NCBI GenBank assembly: GCA_964520545.1
Contig: CAZFOD010000003.1
Coordinates: 20,728-84,727, forward strand
From: an uncultured Candidatus Saccharibacteria bacterium
GTDB lineage: Bacteria > Patescibacteriota > Minisyncoccia > Phycocordibacterales > CAIZLB01
DNA length: 64,000 bases
Reading direction: 5' to 3'
The notes under the pieces are model-generated. The model was not told the DNA's origin. It was given only the letters and a program-made list of their open reading frames with translations, and searched no databases. The translations under genes were made by a program, and so were the position numbers. Shown here one piece after another: positions 1,830-63,536 of this stretch. Numbering within the stretch: the first letter of the stretch is position 1; every line of letters begins with the position of its first letter.

Positions 1830-1833
1830 CAAC

Positions 1834-1891
1834 CCACTTAAACCTTTAGGGAGATAGCAAACCCTAAGGCATCAGGTGGGTTTTCTATTTT
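1834..1891 (+). terminator. Intrinsic terminator (CCCAC...GGTGGG stem + TTTTCTATTTT)
   Basis: Hairpin CCCACTTAAACCTTTAGGG/CCCTAAGGCATCAGGTGGG then T-run; shares GGTGGGTTTTCT tail with terminators at 9179 and 28597. Confidence 0.5.
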
Positions 1892-1950
1892 AATATCGCC
1901 AAGTGATGGAAATAACGCATGTATCTTAATGCTCGTGCTACAATGTTTTC

Positions 1951-2676: not shown

Positions 2677-2833
2677 CTTGAATTAGTGTCTGTACTCTTT
2701 CCAGAAGCATGACGATTTTAAGGTTTGGTGCGCGAGGTTAATACAGGTTACGTAATATTGACGGATTCATAAACTCATTATATATTTCAGTCTGAACTTT
2801 ACGTTCCCAAACAATTAACCGGAGGAAAACCAA

Positions 2834-3640
2834 ATGCCTGAACAATGGCCTGAATCGTATTTAAAGGCATTCGATGCCTTCGTCGCTGACCCGCGTTCTG
2901 AACGCTACGTTGCAGCACTCTTTGACCACTATCGCACTGAACAGATGAAGGCGGCAGAACCTAAGAGTTGGAAAGTAATGGATGTGTGTTGCGGCACCGG
3001 CCTCATCGGCCGTGCATTGAAACACCATCTCGAATGTCTGGGTAAACACGTGGAGTTGACATTCGCAGACAGGTCTGGCGCGATCCTTGAAAGGATCGAC
3101 CTCGTGCCGACTGACTCCGTGATCCAAATAGACGTCACTTCAATGCCAGAGGTAACGTCGGAGAGCTACGATGCAGTCGTCTGTCGCTACGGCTTCAACA
3201 ACCTCCCACAGGAAGACTGGCTCAAGGCACTAGCGGAAGTTTTGCGAATTCTGAAACCCGGAGGCGTCTTTATCCTCCAAGATCACTTCGTCCCGGGGCC
3301 GACATTCTCGGCGCTGGTGAATGAAGCTGAGCAGTTTCTCGCAAAGATGGAAGGGAAGCGAGTGGCGCCCTTCATCTTCTCAACCGAAGCCTTCAACGCT
3401 GTTCTCGATGAGCATCCACTGGTCGTGAAGAGAGTAAAAGACGGCTATGGACTCTTCATCAACATCTGGGATCGGCTCCGCGCAAAGAAAGAGCTTCTGC
3501 CAGACTTCGAGGCTGCGAAGCGAGAGATCCTTCGCTTCTATCGGGAGATCTGCCTGGAGAAATACCAGGTGCTGATCGTTGACCCCGATGAGTACATCCA
3601 CGTTTATAACGTCACCTACGCGATCGAGAAGCGTGTGTGA
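2834..3640 (+). CDS. Class I SAM-dependent methyltransferase
   Basis: Motif I VMDVCCGTGLIG and post-I LKPGGVFIL; GC-richer than surrounding low-GC genes. Confidence 0.7.
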   Translation: MPEQWPESYLKAFDAFVADPRSERYVAALFDHYRTEQMKAAEPKSWKVMDVCCGTGLIGRALKHHLECLGKHVELTFADRSGAILERIDLVPTDSVIQIDVTSMPEVTSESYDAVVCRYGFNNLPQEDWLKALAEVLRILKPGGVFILQDHFVPGPTFSALVNEAEQFLAKMEGKRVAPFIFSTEAFNAVLDEHPLVVKRVKDGYGLFINIWDRLRAKKELLPDFEAAKREILRFYREICLEKYQVLIVDPDEYIHVYNVTYAIEKRV

Positions 3641-3656
3641 CTAAGAAAACAACAAT

Positions 3657-3698
3657 GCCGTGCATCGTCCGAGAGGAGGGTGTGCGGCTGTTTTTTTG
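3657..3698 (+). terminator. Intrinsic terminator after methyltransferase
   Basis: GC hairpin GCCGTGCA...GTGTGCGGC followed by TTTTTTT. Confidence 0.5.
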
Positions 3699-3769
3699 CT
3701 AGACTTTTTATAATCAGGTGGTACTTTTATTAAAACCCCAGAACAAAACAACGAACGAAAGGATACAAG

Positions 3770-4027
3770 ATGAAAAAGACGCGACTGCGCGCAGATAACA
3801 AGACAAACACGTACCTACTCATTTGCAAGAAAGTGGCCAAGGCACTTGAGAAGGAGATTGAAAAAATCACCGCTAAAACCCGAGTGCCACACGAGGCTTT
3901 CAATAGCTTAATCTCAAGGATGGAAGTGCAGAAGCACTTGAAAGCAATGCGATTGGACGTGGAGTGGCGGGAAGACCTGACTGTTCAGGAGTTAGCAAAC
4001 CTACTGTGGCCAAAGAAGGAGAAGTAA
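3770..4027 (+). CDS. Hypothetical small basic protein
   Basis: 85-aa ORF, Lys/Arg-rich; followed by hairpin CCCCG...CGGGG + TTTTGTGTTT at ~4030-4075. Confidence 0.35.
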   Translation: MKKTRLRADNKTNTYLLICKKVAKALEKEIEKITAKTRVPHEAFNSLISRMEVQKHLKAMRLDVEWREDLTVQELANLLWPKKEK

Positions 4028-4305
4028 GCCCCGATCATCAACCAGAACCACGTTCTGCAAGTTGAGGACGGGGTTTTGTGTTTATGGTAAAAGCAGATAT
4101 ATAGAGTCGTCCATATTGGTTTCGTCGAACTTAGGCAGTTCAACAAGTGAGTGCACCACCGAATTTCCATGAAGTAAAACCAAGTCCCACCACTAGACGA
4201 ATGAGGTTTTTAATTATATATTTGGGCCCGTAACGCCCAAGTAAGCGTTACTTGTTCTTTTACAGAGCAATCTAGTAAGTCAACCTCAAAACGGAGAAAT
4301 ACAAT

Positions 4306-5697
4306 ATGAGTCGCAAGACCCTGTTTGATACCGTGTGGGACGAGCACAGAGTGCGAAGTCTCCCACGTGGCCAGGATCAAATCCTGGTCGGCCGCCATCT
4401 GATCCATGAAGTTACGTCCCCACAGGCGTTTCCGATGGTTGAAGAGCGCGGTCTTTCGGTGCGCTTCCCAAAGAGCACCTTCGCCACGGTGGATCACATC
4501 GTGCCGACCGTCGGCCGCAATCGTCCTCTTTTGGACCCGATCGCGGAAATCATGCTCCAGCATCTGGAGCGCAACACAGCCAAACACAAGATCACCCTGT
4601 TCAACCTCGGCGACGAGAACCAGGGAATTGTGCACATCATCGGACCGGAATTGGGCATCACCCAGCCCGGAATGACGATCGCTTGCGGCGATAGCCATAC
4701 CTCCACACACGGAGCATTTGGTGCCATCGCCCTCGGCATCGGGACAACTCAAATTGCCTGCGTCCTCTCAACTGGATGCTTGCTGCTTGAGCGCCCGAAA
4801 GTGCGAAAGATCCAAGTTGACGGTGTCTTGGGAGAAGGCGTTACTGCCAAAGACATCACTCTCGCGATCATCAATCGCTTGGGCGTCAAGGGTGGTATCG
4901 GCTTCGCCTACGAATACGCCGGCAGTGCAATCCACGCACTCGACATGGAAGGTCGCATGACCATCTGCAATATGAGCATCGAAGGCGGTGCGCAGTGTGG
5001 TTATGTCAATCCAGATGAGATCACCGTCGAATATCTGCGGGGTCGGAAATACGTGCCGCAAGGCAACGAGTTCGACATCGCCGCGAAGCGGTGGCTCTCT
5101 CTGGCATCAGGACCCGATGCTGAATACGACGATGTCTTCGTCCTCCCAGCGTCGGAAATCGAACCGATGATGACCTACGGGATCACTCCCGGACAGTCCA
5201 TCGGTGTCAGCGGAACCATTCCGCTCGATGCGCCAAAAGATGCGCTCGATTACATGCAGCTTGAAGCGGGGAAACCTCTTCTCGGAACGAAAGTGAATGT
5301 GGCCTTCATCGGCTCGTGCACCAACGGTCGCATTAGCGATTTCCGCGAAGCGGCAAACCTCATCAAGAAGTATGGTCTCAAAGTTGCGCCTCATGTGACC
5401 GCACTTGCTGTACCGGGATCGGAAAACGTCCGCCGTCAAGCTGAAGGAGAAGGCCTCGATCGAGTCTTCACCGAAGCAGGATGGCAGTGGCGCGGATCCG
5501 GTTGCAGTATGTGCCTCGCCATGAACCCGGATAAACTCCAGGGTAACCAGTTGTGTGCTTCTTCATCGAACCGCAACTTCAAAGGTCGGCAAGGGAGTCC
5601 AACAGGACGAACTGTGCTGATGAGTCCCGCGTCGGTGGTCGCTTGCGCGACCGCCGGTCATATCGCGGATGTGCGAACAATAACCTCAGCGAACTGA
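4306..5697 (+). CDS. leuC: 3-isopropylmalate dehydratase large subunit (aconitase family)
   Basis: Motifs [37 protein letters not shown]; 463 aa; immediately followed by leuD-like gene. Confidence 0.85.
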
Positions 5698-5701
5698 TAC
5701 C

Positions 5702-6322
5702 ATGTTGAAAAAGATCACAAACATCTCCGGCGGTGGCTTTCACCTTCCCGGTAGCGACGTTGATACCGACCGGATCATTCCGGCACGGTTCCTCAAGTGC
5801 GTCACATTCGAGGGCTTGGGCAACCATGTCTTCGAAGACGATCGGGCCCAGCTCGCTGGGCGGCATCCGTTCGACAACGAACGCAACAAAGGCTGCAACA
5901 TCCTGGTTGTGGACGAAAACTTCGGGTCCGGCTCAAGCCGCGAACACGCAGTTCCAGCCCTCACTCAATGGGGCATCCAGGCCATCATCGGCCTTTCGTT
6001 CGCTGCGATCTTCCGTGGAAACGCGGTCGGCAACGGCCTCGTCTGCGTCACGGTCGAGAGGGAAGTGCACGACTTCATTACTCGCGAGATCAGTCTCGGC
6101 GCTTTCGCCGTCCACATCGATCTCGAGAAGATGGAAGTCACCACTGAGCATGCATCGGAAAGCCATCCGATGTGGTGTGCGATGCCTGACGCGCATCGTG
6201 AAAACCTCATGACCGGTGCCTGGGATGATATCGCAACCTGCATCGAAGCGGGAAGCGCTATCGAAGAAACGGCGGCTCGTCTGCCTTACTTCGAAATCCC
6301 GGTCCCCCTGCCCGCGGTCTAA
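5702..6322 (+). CDS. leuD: 3-isopropylmalate dehydratase small subunit
   Basis: LeuD-like DTDRIIPARFLK and VDENFGSGSSREHA motifs; 4-nt gap from leuC. Confidence 0.8.
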   Translation: MLKKITNISGGGFHLPGSDVDTDRIIPARFLKCVTFEGLGNHVFEDDRAQLAGRHPFDNERNKGCNILVVDENFGSGSSREHAVPALTQWGIQAIIGLSFAAIFRGNAVGNGLVCVTVEREVHDFITREISLGAFAVHIDLEKMEVTTEHASESHPMWCAMPDAHRENLMTGAWDDIATCIEAGSAIEETAARLPYFEIPVPLPAV

Positions 6323-6344
6323 CCACTAGATTGTTGAATAATAT

Positions 6345-6389
6345 GACCTCGTCTTCCTTCACAGGAGGGCGAGGTCTATTTTTTTATTT
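6345..6389 (+). terminator. Intrinsic terminator after leuD
   Basis: GACCTCG...CGAGGTC hairpin followed by TATTTTTTTATTT. Confidence 0.55.
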
Positions 6390-6484
6390 GACATACTTAT
6401 ATATAACAGTAATGTGGGAGCTAGACGCTTACTGAATAGGTAAGTGGTCCTTCAAAATCAACCTCAACCTACATATACTCGCAC

Positions 6485-7639
6485 ATGAAAGTTCATCCAA
6501 TCGCACTTGTAAACGGCGACGGCTCCGCTCCTGAAATGATGGCGGTAGCTTGCAAAGTCGCTCAACTCGCAGCAAAAAAAGATGGTCACGCGCTGGAGTT
6601 CCATCCTGCACCAATGGGCTGGAACGCATATCGTGATTACAACGACACGCTTCCTCAAAGTTCACTCGAAACAGCAATCAGTCTTGGCACCGTCTTCTTC
6701 GGCGGTGTCGGTGATCCACAGTTCGACAACACTATCGGTGTTGAAAAACCCGAAATGAAACCTGAAGCGCGGTGCCTCCTTCCTCTTCGGAGTAAAATGG
6801 GGCTTCTGCTCAACTTCCGTCCGATGATCTACTACAAGGATCTGGATCACCTCGCCAACGTCAAGCCCGAGACAATCCCAGCCGAAGGTGTCAGGCAAAT
6901 CTGGATCCGTTTCCTCCTCGAGGACAGCTACTTTGGAAATGCGGACTACAGTCTGAACCCCACGTTCGGACCCTACTTCAAACCAAAGAGCCAGGTGAGC
7001 GGCGAAGAGGACGTCGTCATGGATCTTGCCTATTATCAGCGCTCGACAATCGAGAAATACATTCGTGCGGCGTTCCGCGAAGCAAAAGCTCTCGGCCTTC
7101 CGCTCATCTCGATCGACAAAGCCAATGTCATGGCACGCTATGACTTCTGGCGCAAAATCGTCACGCGGATCGGGAAGAAAGAGTTCCCGGACGTCCCGCT
7201 GTCTCATCAACTCGTGGACTCAGCAAACGCCCTGCTCTTCACTCCGGCGAAATTGCACGGCGTCATTGCCTGCGGTAACGAACACGGAGACATCCTCTCG
7301 GATGGAGCAGCGGGTGCGCTCGGCAGTATGGGAATGATGTGCAGTTCTGCCATCAACCCTGACACTGGTGCAGCGATGTTCGAAAGTGGAGCTGGCACAG
7401 CGCCGACTCTTGCTGGACAGGACAAAGCCAACCCACTCGGTCGCATCCTCACCGCGGCAATGATGCTTCGTCACCTCGGTGCAACAAAGGGTGCAAACTC
7501 AATCGAGAAGGCGGTCAACCTCGTGCTTCGTGAGGGTTACCGCACAGGCGACCTCATCAGCGGAAAAGTTCGCGGTGACGTGACGCGAGTGGGCACGGAA
7601 GAAATGGGCAGTTTGGTTTTGAAGGAGATCGGCGAATAG
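6485..7639 (+). CDS. leuB: 3-isopropylmalate dehydrogenase-like (isocitrate/isopropylmalate dehydrogenase family)
   Basis: N-term IALVNGDGSAPEMM; NEHGDILSDGAAGALGSMGMMCSSAIN and ANPLGRILTAAMMLRHLG motifs; adjacent to leuCD. Confidence 0.7.
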   Translation: MKVHPIALVNGDGSAPEMMAVACKVAQLAAKKDGHALEFHPAPMGWNAYRDYNDTLPQSSLETAISLGTVFFGGVGDPQFDNTIGVEKPEMKPEARCLLPLRSKMGLLLNFRPMIYYKDLDHLANVKPETIPAEGVRQIWIRFLLEDSYFGNADYSLNPTFGPYFKPKSQVSGEEDVVMDLAYYQRSTIEKYIRAAFREAKALGLPLISIDKANVMARYDFWRKIVTRIGKKEFPDVPLSHQLVDSANALLFTPAKLHGVIACGNEHGDILSDGAAGALGSMGMMCSSAINPDTGAAMFESGAGTAPTLAGQDKANPLGRILTAAMMLRHLGATKGANSIEKAVNLVLREGYRTGDLISGKVRGDVTRVGTEEMGSLVLKEIGE

Positions 7640-9292: not shown

Positions 9293-10867
<1,575 letters not shown>

Positions 10868-21490: not shown

Positions 21491-23056
21491 ATGCATTCGC
21501 ATCTTCTCGCATTCAATATTGGATTTACTATCTCAATACTTCTTCCTGCTACACTGGGTATCATTGCTTTGTTTAGAGGGTGGAAAAAGCCTGTAAACAT
21601 TGTATATTTTCTTAATAACGTATTTTTCTGTATATTCGCCTTTGCTTATGTAATGGGAGTAAATGAACATAATGCCCTTCTGTCTACAAAGTACATTTAT
21701 TTCACTTTAATAAATTTGTTTACGGTTTGTCTCACTGCACACCTTGCGGTAATTACTTTCGATCAGTGGAAAAAACATAAAAAATATGTTCTTGGTGCCT
21801 ATGCAGTAGCTTTCGTTCTTTTTATTTTCTTTCTCAGTGACATGTCGAGATATGTGATCACATCACGACCGCTTCTTTATTTCCCAAATTTCTATAACCT
21901 GGGTGAATATTACTGGGTTTTCGCAGTATTTTTCTTTTCTGTTGCAGGTTACTTCTTCTATTTCCTCACACATCTTTACCAGACTACTTCTGACACTCAG
22001 ACTAAGATTCGTATTAAATACTTTGCATTGTCATTTGGGTGGGGATACGGCATAGGTTCGTTACCTTTCCTAACCCTTTTTGGAAGCTCTTTTGACCCAA
22101 TGTACGGATCAATTCTTGGTTTATATGTAGTTCCTCTTGGCTATGCAGCTCTTAAATATGACCTCATTGAACTAGGTGTTATTGCAAAGAATGCAACAAT
22201 ATATGCCGTCTCTACTGCATTAGTGGGGCTTCTCATCATTGCTGTTAACGTAAGTAACAACTTTTTTGTTAACTCATACCCTGGATATCCATTTTGGCTC
22301 ATGCCGCTAGTCTCTGGAATCATTGTCGTCGCCGTCTGTTTCTATATCTGGCGGCACATACGTGAAGTTGATATTTTGAAATATGAATTCATAAACAATG
22401 TAAGTCATAAGTTCCGGACACCTTTGACCCATATCCGTTGGCTAGCAGAGGAGCTAAGAACAGAGTCTGATCCGGTAAAGCGAAATGCTGAGGTTGAGCA
22501 GATGCAACATGCCAGCATGCGATTATTTGAACTAACAAATATCGTTATCGACATCGCACGTGATGACAATGACTCATATCAATACCAGTTTAATAATACA
22601 AAGCTTGAGGATATCCTTACCGACATGAAAAGTGGCCACGAGGAACAGATATCTCATAAACAGCAGAATGTCATTCTTGATATTGAACCTGGGTTACCTG
22701 CAATACGGGCAGACAAGACGCGTATGCAGTTCGCTATTCAAATTCTGTTTGAGAATGCCCTCATCTACACCCCAGTAGGTGGAACAATTACGATTACGAT
22801 AAGGAGGGTGGATAATGATGTTGTCGTTACATTCAAGGATACGGGAATTGGTATTGCGCAGGAGGAGATTCCTCACCTGTTTGCCAAATTCTATCGCACC
22901 GCTAATGCGAGACACGCTGATACAGAAGGAATGGGAATTGGTCTCTTTATGACCAAAAATATCATTGAAAAGCACGGAGGAAAGATTGCTGTTGAGTCAG
23001 ACGGAGAGGGAAAGGGATCTACATTCAGTTTCTCGTTGCCTGTAAAGAGCCGTTAG
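21491..23056 (+). CDS. Sensor histidine kinase with multi-TM (7TM-type) sensor domain
   Basis: ~7 TM helices; H-box FINNVSHKFRTPLTHIRW; HATPase_c G-boxes DTGIGI / GMGIGLFMTK. Confidence 0.8.
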   Translation: MHSHLLAFNIGFTISILLPATLGIIALFRGWKKPVNIVYFLNNVFFCIFAFAYVMGVNEHNALLSTKYIYFTLINLFTVCLTAHLAVITFDQWKKHKKYVLGAYAVAFVLFIFFLSDMSRYVITSRPLLYFPNFYNLGEYYWVFAVFFFSVAGYFFYFLTHLYQTTSDTQTKIRIKYFALSFGWGYGIGSLPFLTLFGSSFDPMYGSILGLYVVPLGYAALKYDLIELGVIAKNATIYAVSTALVGLLIIAVNVSNNFFVNSYPGYPFWLMPLVSGIIVVAVCFYIWRHIREVDILKYEFINNVSHKFRTPLTHIRWLAEELRTESDPVKRNAEVEQMQHASMRLFELTNIVIDIARDDNDSYQYQFNNTKLEDILTDMKSGHEEQISHKQQNVILDIEPGLPAIRADKTRMQFAIQILFENALIYTPVGGTITITIRRVDNDVVVTFKDTGIGIAQEEIPHLFAKFYRTANARHADTEGMGIGLFMTKNIIEKHGGKIAVESDGEGKGSTFSFSLPVKSR

Positions 23057-24026: not shown

Positions 24027-24288
24027 GTATTGCCTCCGTTTTAATTTCGTGGCATTGTTGTCTTAAATCATCCAATCTGTTGAGACGCGGGGCGTCCCGA
24101 CGGATGCCGCGCTCTTTGACGCAATAGAATCACCCCGATGAACACAAAGAGTCCAAGTATCACGCTCTGGATCACATTCATGTCTTTGTGGTTTGTTGGC
24201 ATGGTCACCTACGTCACGTTGCGCTCCTGTAGGCGCGTTGCGGTGTGGCTCCATATCATCAAACCGGAATCGATCCATCGTTAGTTTC

Positions 24289-24332
24289 AAGCAGCCCCTC
24301 CGGGAAGACCGGGCGGGCTGTTTTGTATTTTT
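24289..24332 (+). repeat. Terminator-containing direct repeat, copy 1
   Basis: AAGCAGCCCCTCCGGGAAGACCGGGCGGGCTGTTTTGTATTTTT; near-identical copy at 26992-27034 (one C fewer). Confidence 0.8.
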
Positions 24333-24423
24333 AAACTCCTCTTTGGAAAAGTATGAAGAAACAAATAATCGCCGATGGAGGAATTCCTCCATCGGCGATG
24401 TTCTATTTTATCGAGTTTGTGAT

Positions 24424-25356
24424 TTACCCGATGACTCCGGCCCGCTGAAGCGTCCGCCGAGTGATGCGGAGATGATCGCGCGGGGCGAATGTATGGAGAA
24501 GTCCATCTCCCAATGCCGGGATCTGAGCTCGAACTTTCGCTCCGAAGGGTTCGGTGACCACTTCACCATCGTAACCGACTTCGTCCAAGGCACTAGCGAC
24601 GTTTATCCAGTCGGTGCGATCGGTCACCCCAGGTTCTCCGAACATGGGTTTAGCCCCCGCCGGGAGGCGCCTATTACCGTGGGCGTGCAGGTACCCCAAG
24701 ATGTCGCCACCCTTTCGGATCTCATGAGCCGGATCGCGTCCGTAGCTCTGCATGTGGAACGTATCCGCATGCCACAGGACTGTGCGGTTGCCTACCGCGT
24801 TACTGATTGCCCGTACATCTTCGACACTGCTTATCGCGCCGATACTTTCGCCGGGGCGCAAGTATTCGAGCACCACCGTCAGACCTTCACCGTTGAGCTC
24901 GGATTTGAGTTCGCGATAGAAATTGGCGGCGAAGTCGGTAATACCGCCCGGGAACTGAGCTCTGTAGTCGAAATCGACGCAGAAGCACGACGGTCCAGCG
25001 ATTTTTGCCACCTTGATTCCGTTCTTTCGCAGCTCAAGGAGGAAATGGATACCGGCGCGGAAAGAATCAAGGGAAAGCCTGTTCCTCCCGTTGTCATAGA
25101 TCGGGTTTCCCATGCACTGGTTTCCGGGGAAGAAGATGGTGCCGATAGCGGTATCGATACCTCCTCGTTTCATCGCCTCGGCAGTTTCGGCCGGGGTGAG
25201 GTTGTTGAGCGGAGCTCCGGCCCCGATGTCGAGGACGGTGCAACCGTTGTTGTATGCGGTCGTTGTGAAGCGGGTCAGCAGATTCTGCTGGCCTGCATTG
25301 AGGATGCCGGGGCCTGCCAGTTGATGGATGCCGAACGGACGGATATATTTACTCAT
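24424..25356 (-). CDS. Xylose isomerase-like TIM-barrel protein (sugar phosphate isomerase/epimerase family)
   Basis: Family-typical metal-ligand stretches ...VVLEYL... and WHADTFHMQ; GC-rich. Confidence 0.55.
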   Translation of the reverse strand: MSKYIRPFGIHQLAGPGILNAGQQNLLTRFTTTAYNNGCTVLDIGAGAPLNNLTPAETAEAMKRGGIDTAIGTIFFPGNQCMGNPIYDNGRNRLSLDSFRAGIHFLLELRKNGIKVAKIAGPSCFCVDFDYRAQFPGGITDFAANFYRELKSELNGEGLTVVLEYLRPGESIGAISSVEDVRAISNAVGNRTVLWHADTFHMQSYGRDPAHEIRKGGDILGYLHAHGNRRLPAGAKPMFGEPGVTDRTDWINVASALDEVGYDGEVVTEPFGAKVRAQIPALGDGLLHTFAPRDHLRITRRTLQRAGVIG

Positions 25357-25659
25357 GGTTTCTCCTTTTGTGGATTGTTTTTGATGTGATGTGCTTTCCT
25401 TCCTCCGAATTTCTTCAGTGGTAACCCGGGTGAAGTAGACACTTTTTTACAATATTTGTCAAAGAATACAGTACTAGCATCCTTGACTTCCATAACGACT
25501 ATCGTGTAAGTTTCTTCCAGATATAACAGTTCATCGAAAACCTGCTATCTGGATTCTACCCCTCAGACGGGAAATCTTGTCTTGCTTGTGTTGCCGGCTA
25601 TTATGCTTGGCCTCGTAAGATCAATTCGATATGTCCAAAAACCTCAATCCTGAAATCCT

Positions 25660-26859
25660 ATGAAATCCAAACCTGAACAACCCTCAATCGCGTTCTTCGC
25701 GGCTCAACTCAACGCGCTCCTCGTCGGCCCCGGTAATCGGTTTGCCACGTTCGACGACCTGTGCAAGTTCGCCGCGCAAGAGTGCGGCATCACCGGCGTT
25801 AGTATGCCGAGCGGCATGCTCAATGTGCGCCGCATGATCAACGACGATAGTCATCGGGCTGAGGTTGTCGCGCACTATGCCGGCCTCGGAACCCCCATCA
25901 TTGGCATCGAGACTCACATCGTCGGACAGCGTGTCTGCATGCATCCTGCTGTCGTGCCTCGTTTCGTCGGTTTTGCTCCGAAGTGGATGCAACACTGTGG
26001 CGTCGCAGATCTCGAAGCCCAAGCTCGCGATGAAATGCTCGAAGCTATCGAGCTCGGTCGCTTACTCGGGATCCGCCGCCATCAGACGTTCCCCGGCGGG
26101 CGCAGCGTACCCGTTGCCACCGATCCGTGGAATGCACACCCTCCGTTGCTCCGAGAGAAGGCTTTAGCTCTCCTGGCTGTGAAGTGGGAACCCATCCTCA
26201 AGGCTGCGGGTCGGGGAGGAGTTCGCGTCGGTTTTGAGATTCGTCACATCATGGAGGACCTCTTTTCCTGGCGTGATCTCCGGGATTTGCGCAATAAGTA
26301 TCTGCTGGACGTTGTTGCCAGGAACGCTTTCGCCTGGGGCGTGGACGTGTCTCATCATGAGATCGACGGCGACGACCCGACTGAAGACGTGCTCGAATGT
26401 ATCAAACTGGGTCTTGCGGAGCCTGGCCATGCAAAGCAGGGCGACTTCAATTCGAAGAAGCCGGGTGCTTGTCGCCGGCCTGCGAACATGGCCTGGGCTG
26501 ATCGCGCAGGACAATTCCGGACCTTCGGTACAGTGCACCCCGATCATAGTCGGCTCTTCGCGGATGTAGTGCTCAAAGCCCATGAGCGGAGCGCGCACGG
26601 AGAGTTCGCCGTCATTGAAGGCGAGTGCATGGCAATCCGTAATCCCGAGCAAGGCCTGCGTGTGGCTGCGGAAAATCTCCGCTTGGTGTTTGCTGGTAAA
26701 GAGCCCGTTTCTCTCCAGGAAATCACCCTTGAGCCATGGGACGGCCCGGCGTTCGACAAGTTTGCCGATAGCGGCTACACCGCTGAAGCCGTTATGGCGC
26801 TGAGTGGAAATGACGCCAAAGAGGTGAATCGTCGGCTCGAACACGCCGGCGACATCTGA
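25660..26859 (+). CDS. Xylose isomerase-like TIM-barrel family protein (divergent)
   Basis: GFEIRH and VDVSHHE metal-ligand-like motifs; divergent from 24424..25356 with AT-richer intergenic promoter region. Confidence 0.4.
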   Translation: MKSKPEQPSIAFFAAQLNALLVGPGNRFATFDDLCKFAAQECGITGVSMPSGMLNVRRMINDDSHRAEVVAHYAGLGTPIIGIETHIVGQRVCMHPAVVPRFVGFAPKWMQHCGVADLEAQARDEMLEAIELGRLLGIRRHQTFPGGRSVPVATDPWNAHPPLLREKALALLAVKWEPILKAAGRGGVRVGFEIRHIMEDLFSWRDLRDLRNKYLLDVVARNAFAWGVDVSHHEIDGDDPTEDVLECIKLGLAEPGHAKQGDFNSKKPGACRRPANMAWADRAGQFRTFGTVHPDHSRLFADVVLKAHERSAHGEFAVIEGECMAIRNPEQGLRVAAENLRLVFAGKEPVSLQEITLEPWDGPAFDKFADSGYTAEAVMALSGNDAKEVNRRLEHAGDI

Positions 26860-50626: not shown

Positions 50627-50998
50627 CTACTGCTTTTGTACGAAGGCGAGCAGTGCATCCAAGACGGCGGAAGGGCCGTCAATCTTCGAGATCATGTCGT
50701 TTGCTCCAAGCTTCAAGACCCAGGCTTTGAGTTCAGGGGTGGCATCCATACTGAACATCACAATTGGAAGGACTTCTGTAGGATACTTCAGGCGGAGCTT
50801 GGAAAGCAACACGTCTCCGTTCATCTGGGGCATTCGCATGTCCATGATGATGCCATCGCAGGGATTTTCTTCAAGCCACGATTCAACCAAGATGGGATCT
50901 CCGAGAGCCGTGACCACGCGATCTTTTCCTCGGAAGCATCTAACCAAGGTATCACGAATCATTGGGTGATCGTCTACAATGAGCAGATTCAATTTCAT
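50627..50998 (-). CDS. Stand-alone response regulator receiver (CheY-like) domain
   Basis: LLIVDDHPMIRD...IIMDMRMPQMNG...K motif pattern (Asp pocket, phospho-accepting D). Confidence 0.75.
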   Translation of the reverse strand: MKLNLLIVDDHPMIRDTLVRCFRGKDRVVTALGDPILVESWLEENPCDGIIMDMRMPQMNGDVLLSKLRLKYPTEVLPIVMFSMDATPELKAWVLKLGANDMISKIDGPSAVLDALLAFVQKQ

Positions 50999-57688: not shown

Positions 57689-57724
57689 TATTTACTTAAC
57701 GGCGTTTGCTTATATAATTATCAC

Positions 57725-58198
57725 ATGACAAACATCGTTCTTCTGATCGTATTTGCTGTAATAGCAATTTTTGCATTTTATAAAGGTAAGGGAATTATTT
57801 TCGGGGTAATCACAAGCTTCTATCCTGCTATAGTTGTGTATAAAGCATTTCCGTACATCGACAATGTTATTTTCTTCAAAGATACTTCGCTACAAATATT
57901 CCTATCACACCTTCTTGTGTTCTTTGTAATCTTCGTTCCAATATTCTTTGCAGTTCAACGTATTACGCATACAAGTGGCGGAAGAGGTGGAATTTCAGGC
58001 CTCATAGACGCAGCATTGCTCGCTGTTTCGGTGATAGGTTTAAGCCTTGTCTTGTCTCTCCATATACTCCCAGCACGAGATATATACAATCTCACCTCAT
58101 CAATGCTCAAGTTTTTCAACTCAGAACTCGGATATTTCCTGTCGCTCGTAGTGCCACTGGGCGTCATATTTCACATGTCACGACGATCATTCTACTAA
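57725..58198 (+). CDS. Small multi-TM membrane protein (CvpA-like?)
   Basis: Four predicted TM helices, 157 aa. Confidence 0.35.
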   Translation: MTNIVLLIVFAVIAIFAFYKGKGIIFGVITSFYPAIVVYKAFPYIDNVIFFKDTSLQIFLSHLLVFFVIFVPIFFAVQRITHTSGGRGGISGLIDAALLAVSVIGLSLVLSLHILPARDIYNLTSSMLKFFNSELGYFLSLVVPLGVIFHMSRRSFY

Positions 58199-58205
58199 TC
58201 AGCAT

Positions 58206-58913
58206 ATGCCCACTGTAATATTGCAACCTGCAAAGATCCGCCAAACAATGTCGATGCAACGACGTGTCAATTTAGACGTACAAACCTATGTAGCAAAAGT
58301 TACCCAAGGTTTTGGTACCATATTCTTTCGAATCTTGTACAGTATTCTTTTTAAGATTGAAATATTCGGCAAAGAGAACATTGCAAATGAAAAAGGGCCG
58401 ATGATTATAGTCTCAAACCATGTAGTATTCTTCGACAGCTTCATTTTTCATCTTTTCTTTGCCCCGAACGCTTCGTTGTTACCACTACGCTTCATGGCTG
58501 TAACAAAATTCCAAGTACCATTCTTAAACTTTTTAAGCAAAATTAGAGTTATACACTTCATATATCTACTCTTTGGTGTTTTTGTTGTTAAACAAGGAGA
58601 AGGCCTTGAGAAAAATCTACAGAATGCCGTAGACATACTTAAAAGAGGAGGCACTGTTACAATATTTCCTGCGGGACACATGCGAGGTGATAATTCACTT
58701 GGAGAATTCAAGCGTGGTGCAGCAGCTCTTGCTCAACTTACTGACTCACCAGTTATTCCAGTCGCAATCAAGAGAGTGCGAGAGAAAGGGAAAAGAACTC
58801 GATTTACATTGCTTGTTGGAAAAAAGTTTAAAATGGACAAACATCAATCATTTGAACAGGGAACAGCTTTCATACGTAGCAAGATTGAAGAACTCCACAA
58901 TCAGATATCCTAG
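58206..58913 (+). CDS. 1-acyl-sn-glycerol-3-phosphate acyltransferase-like (PlsC family)
   Basis: NHVVFFD (HX4D) and IFPAGHMRGD (FPEGTR-like) motifs. Confidence 0.65.
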   Translation: MPTVILQPAKIRQTMSMQRRVNLDVQTYVAKVTQGFGTIFFRILYSILFKIEIFGKENIANEKGPMIIVSNHVVFFDSFIFHLFFAPNASLLPLRFMAVTKFQVPFLNFLSKIRVIHFIYLLFGVFVVKQGEGLEKNLQNAVDILKRGGTVTIFPAGHMRGDNSLGEFKRGAAALAQLTDSPVIPVAIKRVREKGKRTRFTLLVGKKFKMDKHQSFEQGTAFIRSKIEELHNQIS

Positions 58914-58959
58914 AAATTTAGACTTGATGATATAATCAGCTTACACCGCAGAACTTTAC

Positions 58960-60054
58960 ATGAAAAAATTTGCTTTTCTCGTACACCCACGTGATAACAC
59001 GGACTTCTTAAGAAGATTTCCATATCTTCGTTTTTTGCCAGAAAGCTTTTTATCATTCCTCACAAAGTACATGCCGCCTGTAACAGTGTCGAACATTACA
59101 GGTCTAACTACAAAAGAGGGAACTCCGATCGAAGGATACATTATTGCCGTTACTATGACTGCAAAACAAATGATGGAGGATCGTGAGCACGCTTTGAAGA
59201 AGATAATAAGTGCGGCGAAGTTTGCCGAAAAGAAAGGTGTTGGAATGATTGGATTTGGAGCACTCACTTCCTCTCTTTCTAAGGGAGGACTTGATGTTGT
59301 GCCTGCTGTAAAAGAGATGGGTATCACAACCGGCCGAGCATATACAACAAAAACAGTCACCGATTACGTTAAAAAGTGTGTTGAAGATTTTGGGTTTGAT
59401 AAAAGTAAAGTAAAAGTAGCTGTCGTAGGAGCTGGAGGATCTATTGGTTCTAGTTGTGCAAGAATATTAGCGGCCTGGGGTGTTAGGAATTTCATATTCA
59501 TCGATACTGAGAAACGTGCTTCACATCTCAAGAAACAAGTTGAGCACATGTCATCAGTACACTTTGATGCAAAAATTGATATCTCGCATGCAATTGCAGA
59601 CATTAAAGGGTGGGATATCATTATTACAGCTACAAATACTCCAGAAGCAGTCATTTCTTCCTCAGACCTTATGGCCGGAGCGATTGTAATTAACGATGCA
59701 CAGCCTTCTGATGTTCCAAACAGCGTCATAAAGGAACGAGACGATGTCCTAATCATAGAAGGAGGCGTCATACATACTCCGGGTATTAAGTGTAACTTTA
59801 ACCTGGGGCTCGCAGGAAGAGAAGATACTTTTTGCTGTTTGGGAGAAGTGCTTGTCTTGGCAAGAGAGGGACATTTTGAAAACTATGCACTTGGTGAGCT
59901 AGATACAGACCTTGTAGCTCACATCGAGGAAATGGCTACAGACCTCAAATTTAGTATCTCTCGTTTCCAGAACTCGGTACAAAGATACATTCCTGATGTG
60001 CAGATAGAAAAAGTGCGAGGTATAATCAAAGAGCGTTTAACATCGGGCTCGTAG
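58960..60054 (+). CDS. NAD(P)-binding oxidoreductase resembling long-chain acyl-ACP reductase (AAR) family
   Basis: Rossmann VKVAVVGAGGSIGSSCARIL; N-terminal FAFLVHPRD / MIGFGALTSSL and C-terminal ...CCLGEVLVLAREGHFENY blocks parallel AAR as recalled; needs HMM confirmation. Confidence 0.45.
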   Translation: MKKFAFLVHPRDNTDFLRRFPYLRFLPESFLSFLTKYMPPVTVSNITGLTTKEGTPIEGYIIAVTMTAKQMMEDREHALKKIISAAKFAEKKGVGMIGFGALTSSLSKGGLDVVPAVKEMGITTGRAYTTKTVTDYVKKCVEDFGFDKSKVKVAVVGAGGSIGSSCARILAAWGVRNFIFIDTEKRASHLKKQVEHMSSVHFDAKIDISHAIADIKGWDIIITATNTPEAVISSSDLMAGAIVINDAQPSDVPNSVIKERDDVLIIEGGVIHTPGIKCNFNLGLAGREDTFCCLGEVLVLAREGHFENYALGELDTDLVAHIEEMATDLKFSISRFQNSVQRYIPDVQIEKVRGIIKERLTSGS

Positions 60055-60064
60055 AACTTAGTAC

Positions 60065-61669
60065 ATGAATTACATCACACTCTCACTTGTCATCATCGCA
60101 ACCATTAACTCCGCACTCGGATTAATGCTTGTACTAAGCAGCCAGCGCCATTATGCCGGTAAGATATATGCCATAAACGTACTCATGATTCTTTCATGGA
60201 TATTCGGCATGTTCTTCTACAGAATATCCACCCCTGACCAAGTATTAATGTGGACAAAGCTCCTATATTTCTTTGCATCACTCATTGCAAGTAGCTTCCT
60301 CTACTTTACATATATTTTCCCAGTTAAAGAGGAAAACTTTAACAGGAACAAGAAGCTATCCATTGTTCTACCGAACGTAATTATTGGTTTTTTAATCCTC
60401 CTTGGTAACCACATCATTAAAGGGGCTCAGGTTGTTGAGACAGGTGAAAACCATATTCAGTTCGGTAACTTCTACATCCTCTATATCGTTTACATACTCT
60501 CGTTCTTCATGTACGCATTCTTCCGCCTATACAAAAAATATAAGTACTCTGAAGACCCTACTGAAAAACGACAAGCTCTCTACCTCTTGGTTGGATATTC
60601 GACATCAGCAAATATCGCTTTCGTAACAAACCTCATTCTGCCATGGCTTGGATTCTTTGAATTTAACTGGGTAGGACAGGTCTCAACGGTAACGATGGTA
60701 ACATTTGCGACATACTCCATTGCAAAGCATCAATTGTTTAACATCAAAGCCATTGCCGTTGAACTCTTCGTTGGAGTTCTGTGGATCCTTCTCCTTCTCC
60801 GTACAGTCGTCGCAAATACGTTCGAAGACAGAATCTTCAATGGGGTATTGCTCGTCCTTACGATTCCTGTAGGAGTTGCTCTCATTAAGGGTGTACTCTC
60901 GGAGATCCGAAGTAGGGAAAAGATTGAACGACTTGCGCAAGACCTTGAGCAGGCCAATATTCGATTGAAGGAACTCGATCAACAGAAGTCTGAATTCGTT
61001 TCTCTAGCCTCACACCAGCTTCGAGGTCCGCTTACGGCAATCAAAGGCTATGCTTCAATGCTTCTTGATGGAGATTTTGGAGAAGTGAAAGATGGTATTA
61101 GAGATGCTGTCGACAAGATATTTAAATCAACACAGGATCTTGTAGTTCTCGTTGGAGACTATCTTAACGTATCAAGAATTGAGCAGGGAAGAATGGAATA
61201 TGACTTCACTCAATTTGATCTTAAGGCATTAGTAGGTACGGTAGTTGCTGAACTTCGTCCTACAATAGAAAAAGCAAACCTTACCCTCGACTATACGTAC
61301 GATGCTGGGCAAGAATATCAAATTAATGCAGATATTGGGAAGATAAAGCAAGTCATTGGAAACATAATCGACAATGGTATTAAATATACACCTCATGGAA
61401 GCATCCATGTGCTACTGGCACAAGGAGCCCCTGGAAAGATTCTTCTCAGTATTTCAGATACCGGTGTAGGAATTCCAAGCGAAGTACTCCCAAGACTTTT
61501 TGAAAAATTTACTCGTGCCCCTGATGCTTCAAAAACAAATATCATGGGTACAGGTCTTGGATTGTATGTAGCTCGGAAAATGATTGAAGCACACCATGGA
61601 AGAATCTGGGCTGAATCACCAGGGCAAGGAAAAGGTTCAACATTCTTCATAGAGTTTGATGCTGCTTAG
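60065..61669 (+). CDS. Sensor histidine kinase with multi-TM sensor domain (paralog of 21491..23056)
   Basis: ~7 TM; H-box FVSLASHQLRGPLTAIKGY; G-boxes DTGVGI / GTGLGLYVARK. Confidence 0.8.
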   Translation: MNYITLSLVIIATINSALGLMLVLSSQRHYAGKIYAINVLMILSWIFGMFFYRISTPDQVLMWTKLLYFFASLIASSFLYFTYIFPVKEENFNRNKKLSIVLPNVIIGFLILLGNHIIKGAQVVETGENHIQFGNFYILYIVYILSFFMYAFFRLYKKYKYSEDPTEKRQALYLLVGYSTSANIAFVTNLILPWLGFFEFNWVGQVSTVTMVTFATYSIAKHQLFNIKAIAVELFVGVLWILLLLRTVVANTFEDRIFNGVLLVLTIPVGVALIKGVLSEIRSREKIERLAQDLEQANIRLKELDQQKSEFVSLASHQLRGPLTAIKGYASMLLDGDFGEVKDGIRDAVDKIFKSTQDLVVLVGDYLNVSRIEQGRMEYDFTQFDLKALVGTVVAELRPTIEKANLTLDYTYDAGQEYQINADIGKIKQVIGNIIDNGIKYTPHGSIHVLLAQGAPGKILLSISDTGVGIPSEVLPRLFEKFTRAPDASKTNIMGTGLGLYVARKMIEAHHGRIWAESPGQGKGSTFFIEFDAA

Positions 61670-61721
61670 GGATATATAAAAGTTATGGCGGACGAATCGC
61701 AAGGATTCGCCCGCCATTTAA

Positions 61722-62453
61722 CTAGCCCTGATCAAGCCAGTACAGGATTTCCTCTGCCACGACGCCCGAGCATTTCTCGAGCATGGGCATATGTCCGCCC
61801 TCGAACTCGTGAAGCTCCGCACCATGCATGTTTGCGATAGCCTGCTGAACCCATGGTGGCGTCATCCTGTCTCGAAGACCACTCAAAACCAATGTCGGCT
61901 TTTCACACTGGGGAACTTTGACCTGGCCGAACGCCAACTGACGAGCAGCAAGACCAGACTCTTTCCAGGGAAACAACTCCGCTGGATCGAACTCGCTTCC
62001 GAGACAGTTCATCATCAGTCTTCTTGCGTCGTTGTCCGCAATCCTGAATCCGGCACCTGAAAACATTGATGCGATGTAGGGTCGGAACGGATTTGCAATC
62101 CGAAGGAAGAGCTCCGTACTCAGTGGCCATATTCCGTAAGGCGCAGCGCTCGTCGTAAGGACAAGACTCCGCACCTCCTTCAGGAATGAAATCGCCTGAG
62201 CGAGAAGACCTCCCATTGAATGGCCAATAACATCGCAGGGGCCAATCATTTTGATTCGGTGGATGACGTAGCTGATGTATATTTCCATGGACATCCCATC
62301 AACACTTTCACCCTCTTTGTGCCCAGGGAGAGTGATGAGATTCACAGTGTGACCTGCGTGTTCGAACCGTCTCCGCCATTGAGCGAACGGCTCCGCATCT
62401 GCCCACATGCCAGGAATGACAGCGATAGATGATTTTCTTTTTGGCTTATGCAT
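61722..62453 (-). CDS. Alpha/beta hydrolase fold protein
   Basis: Nucleophile elbow GHSMGG; GC-richer. Confidence 0.65.
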   Translation of the reverse strand: MHKPKRKSSIAVIPGMWADAEPFAQWRRRFEHAGHTVNLITLPGHKEGESVDGMSMEIYISYVIHRIKMIGPCDVIGHSMGGLLAQAISFLKEVRSLVLTTSAAPYGIWPLSTELFLRIANPFRPYIASMFSGAGFRIADNDARRLMMNCLGSEFDPAELFPWKESGLAARQLAFGQVKVPQCEKPTLVLSGLRDRMTPPWVQQAIANMHGAELHEFEGGHMPMLEKCSGVVAEEILYWLDQG

Positions 62454-62532
62454 TTTTGTACCTCCTTGTACTTGTTTGGTTGGTTAAAGATCTGGGTTAA
62501 ACTCGAAAAAACTGTACCACGAATGTATGGTG

Positions 62533-62560
62533 TGGGCAATGGTGGGCAATTATGGCCAAT
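62533..62560 (+). promoter_or_regulatory. Three direct repeats TGGGCAAT/TGGGCAAT/TGGCCAAT at exact 10-bp spacing upstream of trpS
   Basis: Starts at 62533, 62543, 62553; 32-60 nt upstream of trpS ATG. Confidence 0.45.
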
Positions 62561-62591
62561 ACAAGTGATTTTCTGTTATGATTACAAAGTT

Positions 62592-63536
62592 ATGAAAAAA
62601 ATCCTTCTTTCGGGAGTAAAATCCACCGGCAGACCCCACATCGGAAACTATTTCGGTGCCATGAAGCAATTTGTTGATTTACAAGACCAGTATGAATCTA
62701 GAATATTTATCGCTGATCTCCACTCACTCACATCAACACAGAACGGAAAGGAGCTTTCACAATCAACTCTTGATCTTGCAATAGACTACCTCGCCATAGG
62801 TCTTGATCCAGAAAAAGTACTCATCTTCAAACAATCAGATCTACCTCAAGTAACAGAGCTTAGCTGGATATTCAACTGCATTACTACAATGCCGTATCTC
62901 ATGAGGGCTCATTCGTTTAAAGATGCAGAAGCAAAGAACAAGGAGATTAATGTCGGTGTCTTCGACTATCCACTCCTCATGGCCGCAGACATCTTGATAC
63001 ACAATGCCGATGTTGTGCCTGTAGGACGAGACCAAAAGCAGCACATGGAGATTGCAAGAGATACTGCTGAGAAGTTCAATCGTACATTTGGTGAGGTATT
63101 CAAGCTTCCAGAGCCTATGATTCTCGATTCAGTGGAGACCGTTCCTGGTATTGATGGACAGAAGATGAGTAAGAGCTACAACAATCACATTCCATTATTT
63201 TCAGAAGATGAAGAGATCCGAAAACTTGTCATGTCCATCGTTACTGATTCAGGTGCAGGTATTCCTATGAATGTCTACAATATTCACAAGCTTTTTAGAG
63301 ACGAAGAGTACCTTAAAAAACTTTACGCTGAACACGAAGGGAAGTACAAAGCACTCAAAGATGCACTCGCTGATGACCTCATTACATTCATAGCACCACT
63401 TAGAGAAAGGAGGGCAGAGATTGCCAAGAACCCAGAGAAAGTTAAGGCAATGCTCCTAAAGAATGGAGAGAAAGTTCAAGAAATGACAGCGGCACTTGTC
63501 GCCCAAGTTCGAGAGAAGACAGGTTTAACATTTTAA
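62592..63536 (+). CDS. trpS: Tryptophan--tRNA ligase
   Basis: KSTGRPHIGNY (HIGH-type) and KMSKS motifs; start set at MKKILLSG rather than upstream ORF start. Confidence 0.85.
   Translation: MKKILLSGVKSTGRPHIGNYFGAMKQFVDLQDQYESRIFIADLHSLTSTQNGKELSQSTLDLAIDYLAIGLDPEKVLIFKQSDLPQVTELSWIFNCITTMPYLMRAHSFKDAEAKNKEINVGVFDYPLLMAADILIHNADVVPVGRDQKQHMEIARDTAEKFNRTFGEVFKLPEPMILDSVETVPGIDGQKMSKSYNNHIPLFSEDEEIRKLVMSIVTDSGAGIPMNVYNIHKLFRDEEYLKKLYAEHEGKYKALKDALADDLITFIAPLRERRAEIAKNPEKVKAMLLKNGEKVQEMTAALVAQVREKTGLTF

Follow-up and report, generated by a model that had tools for sequence, protein, structure and literature searches.

A PlsC-family acyltransferase, an acyl-reductase homolog and a HisKA_7TM sensor kinase in a Saccharibacteria contig: a putative sensor-coupled acyl-reductase module

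What does a homolog of an acyl-[acyl carrier protein] reductase do in bacteria that reportedly lack an acyl carrier protein (ACP)? This question is raised by a stretch of 64,000 nucleotides (nt) from an uncultured Candidatus Saccharibacteria bacterium (assembly GCA_964520545.1, contig CAZFOD010000003.1, positions 20,728 to 84,727), here called the window, to which all coordinates refer. On its plus strand the open reading frames (ORFs) 58206-58913 and 58960-60054 encode an acyltransferase (AT) of 235 amino acids (aa) and a reductase (RED) of 364 aa. They are preceded by the ORF of a small membrane protein (TM157, 57725-58198, +) and followed by a gene for a sensor histidine kinase of 534 aa (60065-61669, +). 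A first-pass annotation, made from the letters of the DNA only, had described AT and RED as a PlsC-type acyltransferase and a protein resembling the cyanobacterial long-chain acyl-ACP reductase (AAR), and both ORFs as well as all motifs quoted for them were found again in position, strand and translation. The candidate phyla radiation (CPR) genomes screened by Probst et al. (2020) contain PlsY and PlsC, and no PlsX or ACP-related enzymes (PMC7242380). As a search of the 64-kb window likewise revealed no ACP (nor any second AT, second RED or second HisKA_7TM domain), a homolog named after acyl-ACP reduction is an anomaly in such a lineage. For comparison 45 genomic loci (L-numbers) were fetched, and protein clusters are denoted by P-numbers.

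RED is a member of the superfamily that comprises AAR, the thioester-reductase (TR) domain of PigE and the TAD domain of CarI, and in this respect the earlier assignment stands, by sequence, predicted fold and catalytic-position Cys alike. In searches against the PDB, RED matched PigE (4PPM, E = 7e-18), AAR (6JZU, 2.7e-13) and the CarI TAD (9E4X, 7.5e-8) over most of its length, and a profile of the RED family matched the same proteins with E-values of 1e-32, 1.2e-25 and 4.2e-19, respectively. An AlphaFold model built with 20 homologs reached a predicted local distance difference test score (pLDDT) of 92.5 and a predicted template modeling score (pTM) of 0.91. When this model was compared with the PDB by Foldseek, the top matches were exclusively AAR and CarI TAD chains (E about 1e-21, template modeling (TM) score 0.73-0.77), whereas the next fold reached a TM score of only about 0.33. 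The match to AAR 6JZY (E = 6e-22, TM score 0.76/0.80) covers the two-lobed fold of that enzyme, with its catalytic Cys between the lobes. No transmembrane segments are predicted for RED, which thus appears as a soluble protein.

The catalytic residues of the superfamily are conserved as well. The translation of RED contains the blocks FAFLVHPRD (residues 4-12), GFGALTSSL (98-106), VKVAVVGAGGSIGSSCARIL (151-170), EGGVIHTPGIKCNF (267-280) and CCLGEVLVLAREGHFENY (292-309), and its key residues are Thr-Thr-Gly at 123-125 (nt 59326-59334), GAGGSIG at 157-163 (nt 59428-59448), Asp182 (nt 59503-59505), DAQPSD at 246-251 and Cys293 (nt 59836-59838), the last of which belongs to a C-x-x-E motif. Cys293, the second Cys of FCCLGEV, aligns with the catalytic Cys294 of AAR, as had been suspected from its approximate position; no sequence of the family alignment deviates at this position, and all clades examined possess the Cys. 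Among 20 RED homologs, T123, G125, G157, G160, G163 and D246 are invariant alongside C293, and T124 is nearly so. The Cys, the TTG of the junction, the DAQPSD Asp close to the nicotinamide and the GxGxxG motif align with the corresponding motifs of PigE, AAR and TAD; in the TAD paper the TTG is described as invariant. The proposed block-for-block parallel to AAR is confirmed in part, as the N-terminal FAFLVHPRD lies outside the sequence alignments but is spanned by a structure alignment of 358 columns.

Membership of the superfamily does not make RED an AAR. Against the AAR model TIGR04058 it scored 65.7 bits (E = 4e-18), far below the equivalog cutoff of 449.7; AAR forms a long-branch outgroup in a distance tree, and the R189/R193/R314 pocket of AAR is not conserved. 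For these reasons RED is not an AAR ortholog, and the AAR-like identity holds at the level of the superfamily but not of orthology. Judging from the sequence scores, the nearest characterized relative is the TR domain of PigE and TamH: the model NF053554, which describes PigE and of which the N-terminal half was matched (profile positions 45-356 of 837), was hit with E = 2.5e-39 and 135 bits, below the equivalog score of 850 bits. Pfam recognizes in RED only the Rossmann portion of Shikimate_DH (PF01488; 29 bits, residues 148-254). A shikimate/quinate dehydrogenase (AroE) or an amino-acid dehydrogenase was rejected, with nothing beyond the Rossmann segment matching and a score of 17.4 bits against the TIGR00507 cutoff of 200, so that the better match to shikimate dehydrogenase, named beforehand as an outcome that would overturn the AAR assignment, was not seen. 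Shikimate dehydrogenases were also not among the fold matches with high TM scores, in which AAR and TAD were far ahead. The superfamily is large (3,834 representatives at 50% identity with E <= 1e-3, of which 1,003 have E <= 1e-30), and automated labels of its members read "acyl-ACP reductase", "amino acid dehydrogenase" or "hypothetical". The closest homologs of RED come from metagenome-assembled genomes (MAGs) of Patescibacteria/CPR, led by a Patescibacteria group bacterium at 77% identity and including Paceibacterota, Azambacteria and others.

In AAR, PigE and TamH an acyl group is moved from a phosphopantetheine thioester to the Cys, reduced to the aldehyde and handed to a partner enzyme (PMC7089970, PMC8341465, PMC9594044). 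By analogy to these relatives, RED would reduce an acyl thioester to an aldehyde. For the cofactor, the comparison points away from AAR, whose R189/R193/R314 pocket binds the 2'-phosphate of NADPH and the 3'-phosphate of CoA. In the alignment R189 has no counterpart in RED and this phosphate pocket is absent; hence, of the two parts of the proposed comparison with AAR, the catalytic Cys was recovered and the NADPH site was not, with Asp182 found there instead. The invariant Asp182 lies where strand beta-2 ends, and its counterpart in the alignment is an Asp of the TAD, a domain specific for NAD(H); there, this Asp hydrogen-bonds the ribose hydroxyls of adenosine and excludes NADP(H) and CoA (TAD paper). 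As Asp182 aligns with this residue and the AAR pocket is not conserved, we infer that RED uses NAD(H) and that acyl-CoA would fit poorly.

The genes around RED in its relatives support acyl-thioester chemistry, as the slot directly upstream of RED is held there by an ACP gene (L041 and L023) or by ketoacyl synthase (KS) plus ACP, with a PilZ-KS fusion beside the ACP in L023. In Patescibacteria this very slot is occupied by AT. Many relatives outside the Patescibacteria carry an N-terminal PilZ domain on RED itself, which suggests that RED is under the control of c-di-GMP in those lineages.

Two further arrangements of RED relatives were observed in passing. In L030, L033 and L037 (MAGs of Omnitrophica, Terriglobia and Spirochaetes) a separate RED clade is extended at its N-terminus by about 150 conserved aa without a Pfam match. 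Its gene in each case overlaps with and follows a gene for a protein of 356-387 aa of unknown family, and it is not accompanied by a 7TM sensor. Ketoacyl-synthase genes are located nearby, as is an AMP-ligase gene in L037, and the region looks like an uncharacterized lipid or polyketide gene cluster. L035 (Rhodomicrobiaceae MAG, 172-4088) encodes a class-III aminotransferase-RED fusion of 906 aa with the domain order of TamH, followed by a gene for a Zn-dependent alcohol dehydrogenase.

AT belongs to the acyltransferase family PF01553 (E = 6e-18, 65.3 bits, cutoff 23). Among proteins of solved structure only PlsC 5KYM is related to it (E = 2e-9). The HX4D dyad is found in NHVVFFD at residues 72-77 (nt 58419-58436), and NHxxxxD is invariant in 22 homologs. 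Block III reads FPAGH (154-158) in the copy of the window and FPEG in most relatives, whereas block II reads GAFP...G across the AT family and is devoid of the Arg of the canonical F-x-x-R. Against TIGR00530, the PlsC subfamily model, AT reached 56.9 bits, which is below the cutoff of 102.95, and the canonical combination of blocks II and III is likewise missing. The earlier description as a PlsC-type neighbor is therefore upheld for the family and the dyad and fails for the subfamily. With a score below the PlsC cutoff and no block-II Arg, to call AT a housekeeping lysophosphatidic acid (LPA) acyltransferase, or its surroundings a lipid-synthesis context, is an assumption; judging from these motifs, its acceptor could differ from LPA.

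The link between the two proteins, on the other hand, is real, since natural AT-RED fusions exist. Among species-representative genomes of Patescibacteria, a PF01553 gene is located upstream of RED in 17 of the 19 loci with enough upstream DNA; in 13 of these 17 it abuts or overlaps RED and in the other four it lies at a distance of 0.5-2.4 kb. Two patescibacterial loci, L005 and L028, contain RED and the kinase without any AT nearby. Fusions were found in five protein clusters (P0040, P0045, P0048, P0261 and P0278), always with AT at the N-terminus running straight into the RED start KKFAFLVHPR. In a rough neighbor-joining (NJ) tree the five fusions were monophyletic in none of 60 bootstraps, and P0261 pairs with L024 and P0278 with L036, two loci in which AT and RED are separate genes. 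Moreover, the fusions occur behind two different upstream genes, dnaJ and bacA. Their scattered distribution and the two upstream contexts speak for repeated fusion and thereby a real functional coupling of AT and RED. As an observation in its own right, L015 (Candidatus Azambacteria MAG MEYP01000010.1, 5572-7974) carries a gene for an 800-aa FadE-type acyl-CoA dehydrogenase (ACDH_C, E = 6e-89) between AT and RED; enzymes of the beta-oxidation type would not be expected in the genome of a CPR bacterium.

The most conserved partner of RED is, however, not AT but the HisKA_7TM sensor kinase, which the first-pass annotation had left out. Its gene starts 10 nt after the RED stop codon. HisKA_7TM (residues 8-227) is the sole sensor domain of the protein (PF16927, E = 5e-13, 49.8 bits, cutoff 28.6), followed by HisKA (PF00512, 1.7e-14, 54.1 bits, cutoff 26.9) with the phospho-acceptor His317 within SHQLRGPL and by HATPase_c (PF02518, 1.8e-26, 93.2 bits, cutoff 26.4), and all hallmarks of a HisKA_7TM histidine kinase are thus present. 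A profile restricted to the 7TM region matched the gene directly after RED in all 27 representative loci of Patescibacteria and sister clades with downstream DNA, with gaps of -98 to +146 nt, but in none of five loci from other RED clades. Furthermore, a 7TM gene directly follows RED in L038-L041, L043 and L045. In the complete genome of Nitrospira tepida (4.7 Mb) the gene next to RED overlaps it by 8 nt and encodes a HisKA_7TM-GAF-HisKA-HATPase protein. RED of this species has 600 aa and an N-terminal extension of about 200 aa, in which Pfam does not call a PilZ domain, although PilZ is called in the extension of the related proteins P0192, P0152 and P0239 of about 570-630 aa. The pairing is also present in L026, a Nitrospiraceae MAG with a GC content of 0.585.

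The genes that accompany this pair vary. In L039 the order is RED, 7TM-GAF kinase and two response regulators, and in L041 it is ACP, RED, 7TM-GAF kinase and response regulator. L023 and L027 show a PilZ-ketoacyl-synthase fusion, ACP, RED, 7TM-GAF kinase and a response regulator with an HD domain, while in L043 RED, 7TM-GAF kinase and response regulator are followed by an HD-GYP protein, an MGDG-synthase-like glycosyltransferase and a lipid-A-acyltransferase-like gene. In L040 a FadL-type porin precedes RED, which is followed by a HisKA_7TM-GAF-HD-GYP protein without a kinase domain. As the output is here HD-GYP instead of a kinase, the 7TM module itself is the constant partner and the output domain the variable part. 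In the literature found, HisKA_7TM is listed as a sensor domain with no signal or ligand stated.

Three observations on signaling genes stand beside these results. A single-domain response regulator of 123 aa is encoded 8 kb upstream of the cassette (50627-50998, -), beside a PEGA-domain protein and a glycosyltransferase; being the sole response regulator annotated in about 49-64 kb of the window, it is a candidate partner of the orphan 7TM kinase. A second membrane histidine kinase of 521 aa (21491-23056) contains HisKA and HATPase_c and an N-terminal region with multiple transmembrane segments that is not recognized as HisKA_7TM. As a 521-aa kinase in L002 (1893-3458) was matched by the 7TM profile, the kinase of the window could be a divergent paralog. 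Finally, L039 contains three tandem HisKA_7TM histidine kinase genes (980-5702) directly upstream of its RED cluster, and a giant RHS/YD-repeat gene (4,398 aa) downstream.

These comparisons establish that the proteins are homologous to known families, that RED has the predicted fold and the active-site residues of its superfamily, that the genes are neighbors in several phyla and that fusions exist, and the reading of the locus that we consider moderately probable is a sensor-coupled acyl-reductase module. RED would accept a fatty acyl group on Cys293 as a thioester and reduce it to a fatty aldehyde, most likely with NAD(H), and the same acyl chain would be handled together with the upstream AT. 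The HisKA_7TM protein would either detect a membrane-partitioning lipid product, or the lipid state of the membrane, or control production by the module. What we infer in this scheme comprises aldehyde formation, the use of NADH, the donor of the acyl group, the direction in which acyl groups move between AT and RED, and the sensed signal. A more specific version, which is decidedly speculative and quite improbable, has AT standing in for ACP: by a tafazzin-like transacylation it would strip an acyl group from a scavenged host (lyso)phospholipid and pass it to Cys293, and the aldehyde then made with NADH would be the ligand of HisKA_7TM.

Several points weigh against the sensor-coupled module. 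An aldehyde is not a substrate of a PlsC-type acyltransferase, which leaves the chemistry of the AT-RED fusions without a clear logic, and the independence of the fusions was judged from the rough NJ tree mentioned above. The thioester donor poses a similar difficulty, as ACP-related enzymes are reportedly missing from CPR (PMC7242380) while Asp182 should disfavor acyl-CoA. The TAD demonstrates that the same fold can use an acyl-S-Cys and NAD for chemistry beyond simple reduction (TAD paper). On the sensor side, no response regulator is adjacent to the cassette in Patescibacteria. The 7TM sensor was modeled with a pLDDT of 75.5, and Foldseek yielded generic seven-helix matches resembling G-protein-coupled receptors, with TM scores of about 0.5 and none with E <= 0.001; a homolog search with the 7TM region returned only seven proteins and thus a shallow alignment. 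Lastly, the cassette is part of a long frozen backbone in Patescibacteria (grpE-dnaK-dnaJ-AT-RED-HK-trpS-aspS-scpA-scpB, with HK for the kinase), so that adjacency within this group is weak evidence when taken alone.

Of the alternatives, an acyl-transfer role of RED is the main rival, followed, with progressively lower likelihood, by a regulatory role, frozen synteny and a genuine AAR. In the acyl-transfer scheme, which is unlikely and nevertheless the strongest competitor, the acyl-S-Cys293 would be passed on without release of an aldehyde, serving an ACP-independent activation or transfer of acyl groups for phospholipid assembly. The acyl group would stem from a scavenged donor or, in the manner of GAPDH, from an aldehyde oxidized with NAD+, and it would be delivered to the acceptor of AT (a lysolipid or glycerol-3-phosphate) or to phosphate, yielding an acyl-phosphate for PlsY and replacing the missing ACP/PlsX chemistry of CPR. 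This would suit the reported gene content of CPR, with PlsY and PlsC and without PlsX or ACP-related enzymes (PMC7242380), as well as the position of AT in the slot that ACP holds in relatives and the fusions, which place both active sites on one polypeptide. The TAD provides a precedent for a non-reductive use of acyl-S-Cys, and the presumed preference for NAD(H) fits the oxidative direction. On the other hand, every characterized relative with a defined reaction reduces thioesters to aldehydes, and a source of fatty aldehyde is not evident. The scheme also leaves the universal 7TM pairing unexplained, including that in Nitrospira with its normal ACP-based lipid synthesis, and in L005 and L028 an AT is missing from the neighborhood of RED and the kinase.

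A rather improbable alternative is that RED mainly serves the 7TM protein as its regulatory or sensory subunit and reports the NADH/NAD+ ratio or the acyl-thioester status to the kinase by direct contact. The strict RED-7TM pairing with its frequent overlap of start and stop codons would agree with this, and so would the persistence of the pairing when the output changes from kinase to HD-GYP; PilZ-RED fusions and neighboring genes for a response regulator with HD-GYP or for GGDEF proteins likewise place RED inside signaling circuits in relatives. However, the full catalytic set (Cys293, TTG, Asp246 and GxGxxG) is invariant across clades, and acyl suppliers (AT, ACP or KS-ACP) are co-encoded or fused, the latter observation pointing to real turnover of a substrate.

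That the locus is no functional unit at all, with a housekeeping PlsC, an unrelated dehydrogenase and an unrelated sensor kept together by frozen gene order, is very improbable. The backbone of housekeeping genes that surrounds the cassette is indeed conserved across many Patescibacteria. Yet the RED-7TM pairing recurs in Nitrospira and other genomes outside the Patescibacteria with unrelated neighbors and different GC content, so that frozen synteny is rejected as its sole cause, and for the AT-RED adjacency it is rejected because fusions exist, which recur in separate lineages. Gene overlaps moreover imply co-translation, and mis-binning is unlikely for the complete 4.7-Mb genome of Nitrospira; cross-phylum adjacency and fusions thus largely refute this explanation. 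It is scarcely credible that RED is a genuine cyanobacterial-type AAR (EC 1.2.1.80) feeding alkane or alcohol biosynthesis, as fold, catalytic Cys and the name "fatty aldehyde-generating acyl-ACP reductase" given to some homologs by the pipeline of the Joint Genome Institute (JGI) are outweighed by the TIGR04058 score, the position of AAR as a distant outgroup, the unconserved NADPH pocket and the lack of an ACP in the window and of any aldehyde-deformylating oxygenase (ADO).

The AAR/ADO alkane route itself was rejected on the basis of this score and of the absence of an ADO homolog from the window and the 45 loci, searched with an ADO query sequence; among Pfam-annotated neighbors within 10 kb there was no ADO either, which agrees with the earlier remark that such a partner is lacking. 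An ether-lipid route of the AGPS type, suggested by a FAD-linked oxidase (9305-10867; FAD_binding_4 and FAD-oxidase_C), was rejected too, as the oxidase matched LctD (4.6e-35) far better than AGPS (1.4e-8) and is of the D-lactate/GlcD (glycolate)/2-hydroxyglutarate dehydrogenase type.

A comparison with characterized systems helps to place the sensor-coupled module. AAR of Synechococcus elongatus (6JZU/6JZY; TIGR04058) shares with RED the two-lobed fold (TM score 0.75-0.80), the aligned Cys, TTG, C-x-x-E and GxGxxG, and presumably also the mechanism from acyl-S-Cys via hydride transfer to the aldehyde (PMC7089970). The two are only about 21% identical, and RED, from a lineage reportedly without ACP (PMC7242380), has a PlsC-type AT and a 7TM sensor instead of an ADO as partners. 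The TR domains of PigE (prodigiosin) and TamH (tambjamine) are the best sequence match, contain the conserved Cys and are, like RED in its fusions, joined to an enzyme acting on the same acyl chain; TamH was reported to be NADH-dependent and to require an acyl group bound to a carrier protein rather than acyl-CoA (PMC9594044). Unlike RED, they are fused to a class-III aminotransferase in secondary-metabolite clusters, while RED forms a distinct clade whose partner is an acyltransferase; no aminotransferase was found in the RED protein or within 10 kb. The CarI TAD (carmabin; 9E4S/9E56) resembles RED in its fold (TM score about 0.76), the invariant Cys, TTG and the ribose-binding Asp that confers NAD(H) specificity. 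The TAD paper also contains a cluster of discrete homologs outside biosynthetic gene clusters to which no function was assigned. In contrast to RED, which has neither a nonribosomal peptide synthetase (NRPS) nor a peptidyl carrier protein (PCP) with it, the TAD forms the C-terminal end of an NRPS module, where a PCP feeds it, and its chemistry is probably not a simple reduction.

A precedent in lipid biosynthesis for an acyl-thioester reductase and a PlsC/AGPAT-type acyltransferase on one polypeptide, as in the AT-RED fusions, is the myxobacterial ether-lipid enzyme ElbD, which was reportedly described by Lorenzen and colleagues in 2014 as consisting of ligase, ACP, reductase and AGPAT domains. 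Its terminal reductase, however, is of the short-chain dehydrogenase/reductase type and not homologous to RED; ElbD further has its own ligase and ACP and is not known to have a sensor-kinase partner. No enzyme of the alkyl-dihydroxyacetone-phosphate-synthase type was found in the window. With respect to gene layout, CqsA/CqsS, LqsA/LqsS and LuxM/LuxN are pairs of a signal synthase and a membrane sensor kinase, and DesK-DesR-des serves membrane homeostasis. Like the cassette, they combine an acyl-thioester enzyme with a polytopic membrane histidine kinase without an extracytoplasmic domain. Neither the synthases nor the sensors of these systems are known to be homologous to RED, AT or HisKA_7TM, so that the likeness is an analogy only; by that analogy, the layout suits the sensing of a hydrophobic product or of a membrane property.

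Fold and chemistry of RED are thus already known, while for the arrangement of AT, RED and 7TM sensor no description was found in the literature; the same holds for the RED clade, the AT fusions, the PilZ fusions and the strict pairing with HisKA_7TM. The AAR superfamily, previously placed in alkane synthesis, in the formation of pyrrole-alkaloid amines and in the termination of NRPS products, thereby gains a fourth functional context and a new fusion partner. The cassette offers a concrete, clonable entry point to the question of how Patescibacteria obtain and process their membrane lipids and a testable lead on the handling or sensing of acyl chains in lipid-scavenging bacteria. Since HisKA_7TM is strictly paired with an acyl reductase in different phyla, the signal of this widespread sensor domain may well derive from lipids. 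Should AT indeed stand in for a carrier and the aldehyde be the ligand, the cassette would represent a pathway of host-lipid sensing and processing, and the orphan HisKA_7TM family would obtain with the aldehyde its first class of ligands, also for the PilZ-RED/7TM systems of Nitrospira.

The region 57725-61669 is an apparent operon of three core genes (AT, RED and the 7TM kinase) and one variable accessory, with intergenic gaps of 7 (TM157-AT), 46 (AT-RED) and 10 nt (RED-kinase). The accessory gene encodes TM157, a protein of 157 aa with four predicted transmembrane segments that belongs to no known family; L016 and L036 each carry a homolog in the position just upstream of AT, and in L018 a homolog lies at a distance of 3 kb. 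In the spacer between dnaJ and TM157 a promoter-like site (57691-57718, +; TTTACT-16 nt-TATAAT, 10 of 12 consensus matches) may mark where transcription of the unit begins. The region contains seven such sites compared to 13.0 in shuffled controls, i.e., fewer than expected, so that this site is suggestive by its position alone. On the plus strand no terminator-like site was found in the gaps from TM157 to the kinase gene, and one was reported inside RED (59269-59289). The spacer between AT and RED includes an extended -10-like sequence, TGATATAAT, at 58929-58937, which was not flagged by the consensus scan as it has no -35 element; by its sequence it may serve RED and the kinase as an internal promoter. 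A hairpin with a 14-bp stem and eight G-C pairs (61685-61717), located between the kinase stop codon and a convergent hydrolase gene, is where the transcription unit likely ends.

The hydrolase (61722-62453, -) is an alpha/beta-hydrolase (Abhydrolase_6) with thioesterase- and lipase-like matches. L002 and L042 have it in the corresponding place, whereas it does not recur in loci that are more distant, and it is a possible accessory conserved only among close relatives. The mechanically derived ORF of the adjacent tryptophanyl-tRNA synthetase (TrpRS, 62448-63536) overlaps the end of this minus-strand gene. In the output of gene callers the start is shifted by about 75 nt downstream (L001 13564, corresponding to 62523 of the window), and the real start of TrpRS is probably at 62523.

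Elsewhere in the window, a stretch at 4306-7639 carries leuC-, leuD- and leuB-like genes (an aconitase-family large subunit, a small subunit and an isopropylmalate/isocitrate dehydrogenase). Its GC content of 0.52-0.545 compares with a baseline of about 0.41 for the window, and the reduced genome may have acquired this stretch as an island by horizontal transfer. A second stretch of high GC content (0.49-0.53) at 24193-26859 includes two ORFs of about 398 aa, one without a Pfam match and the other with a weak match to a xylose-isomerase-like TIM barrel.

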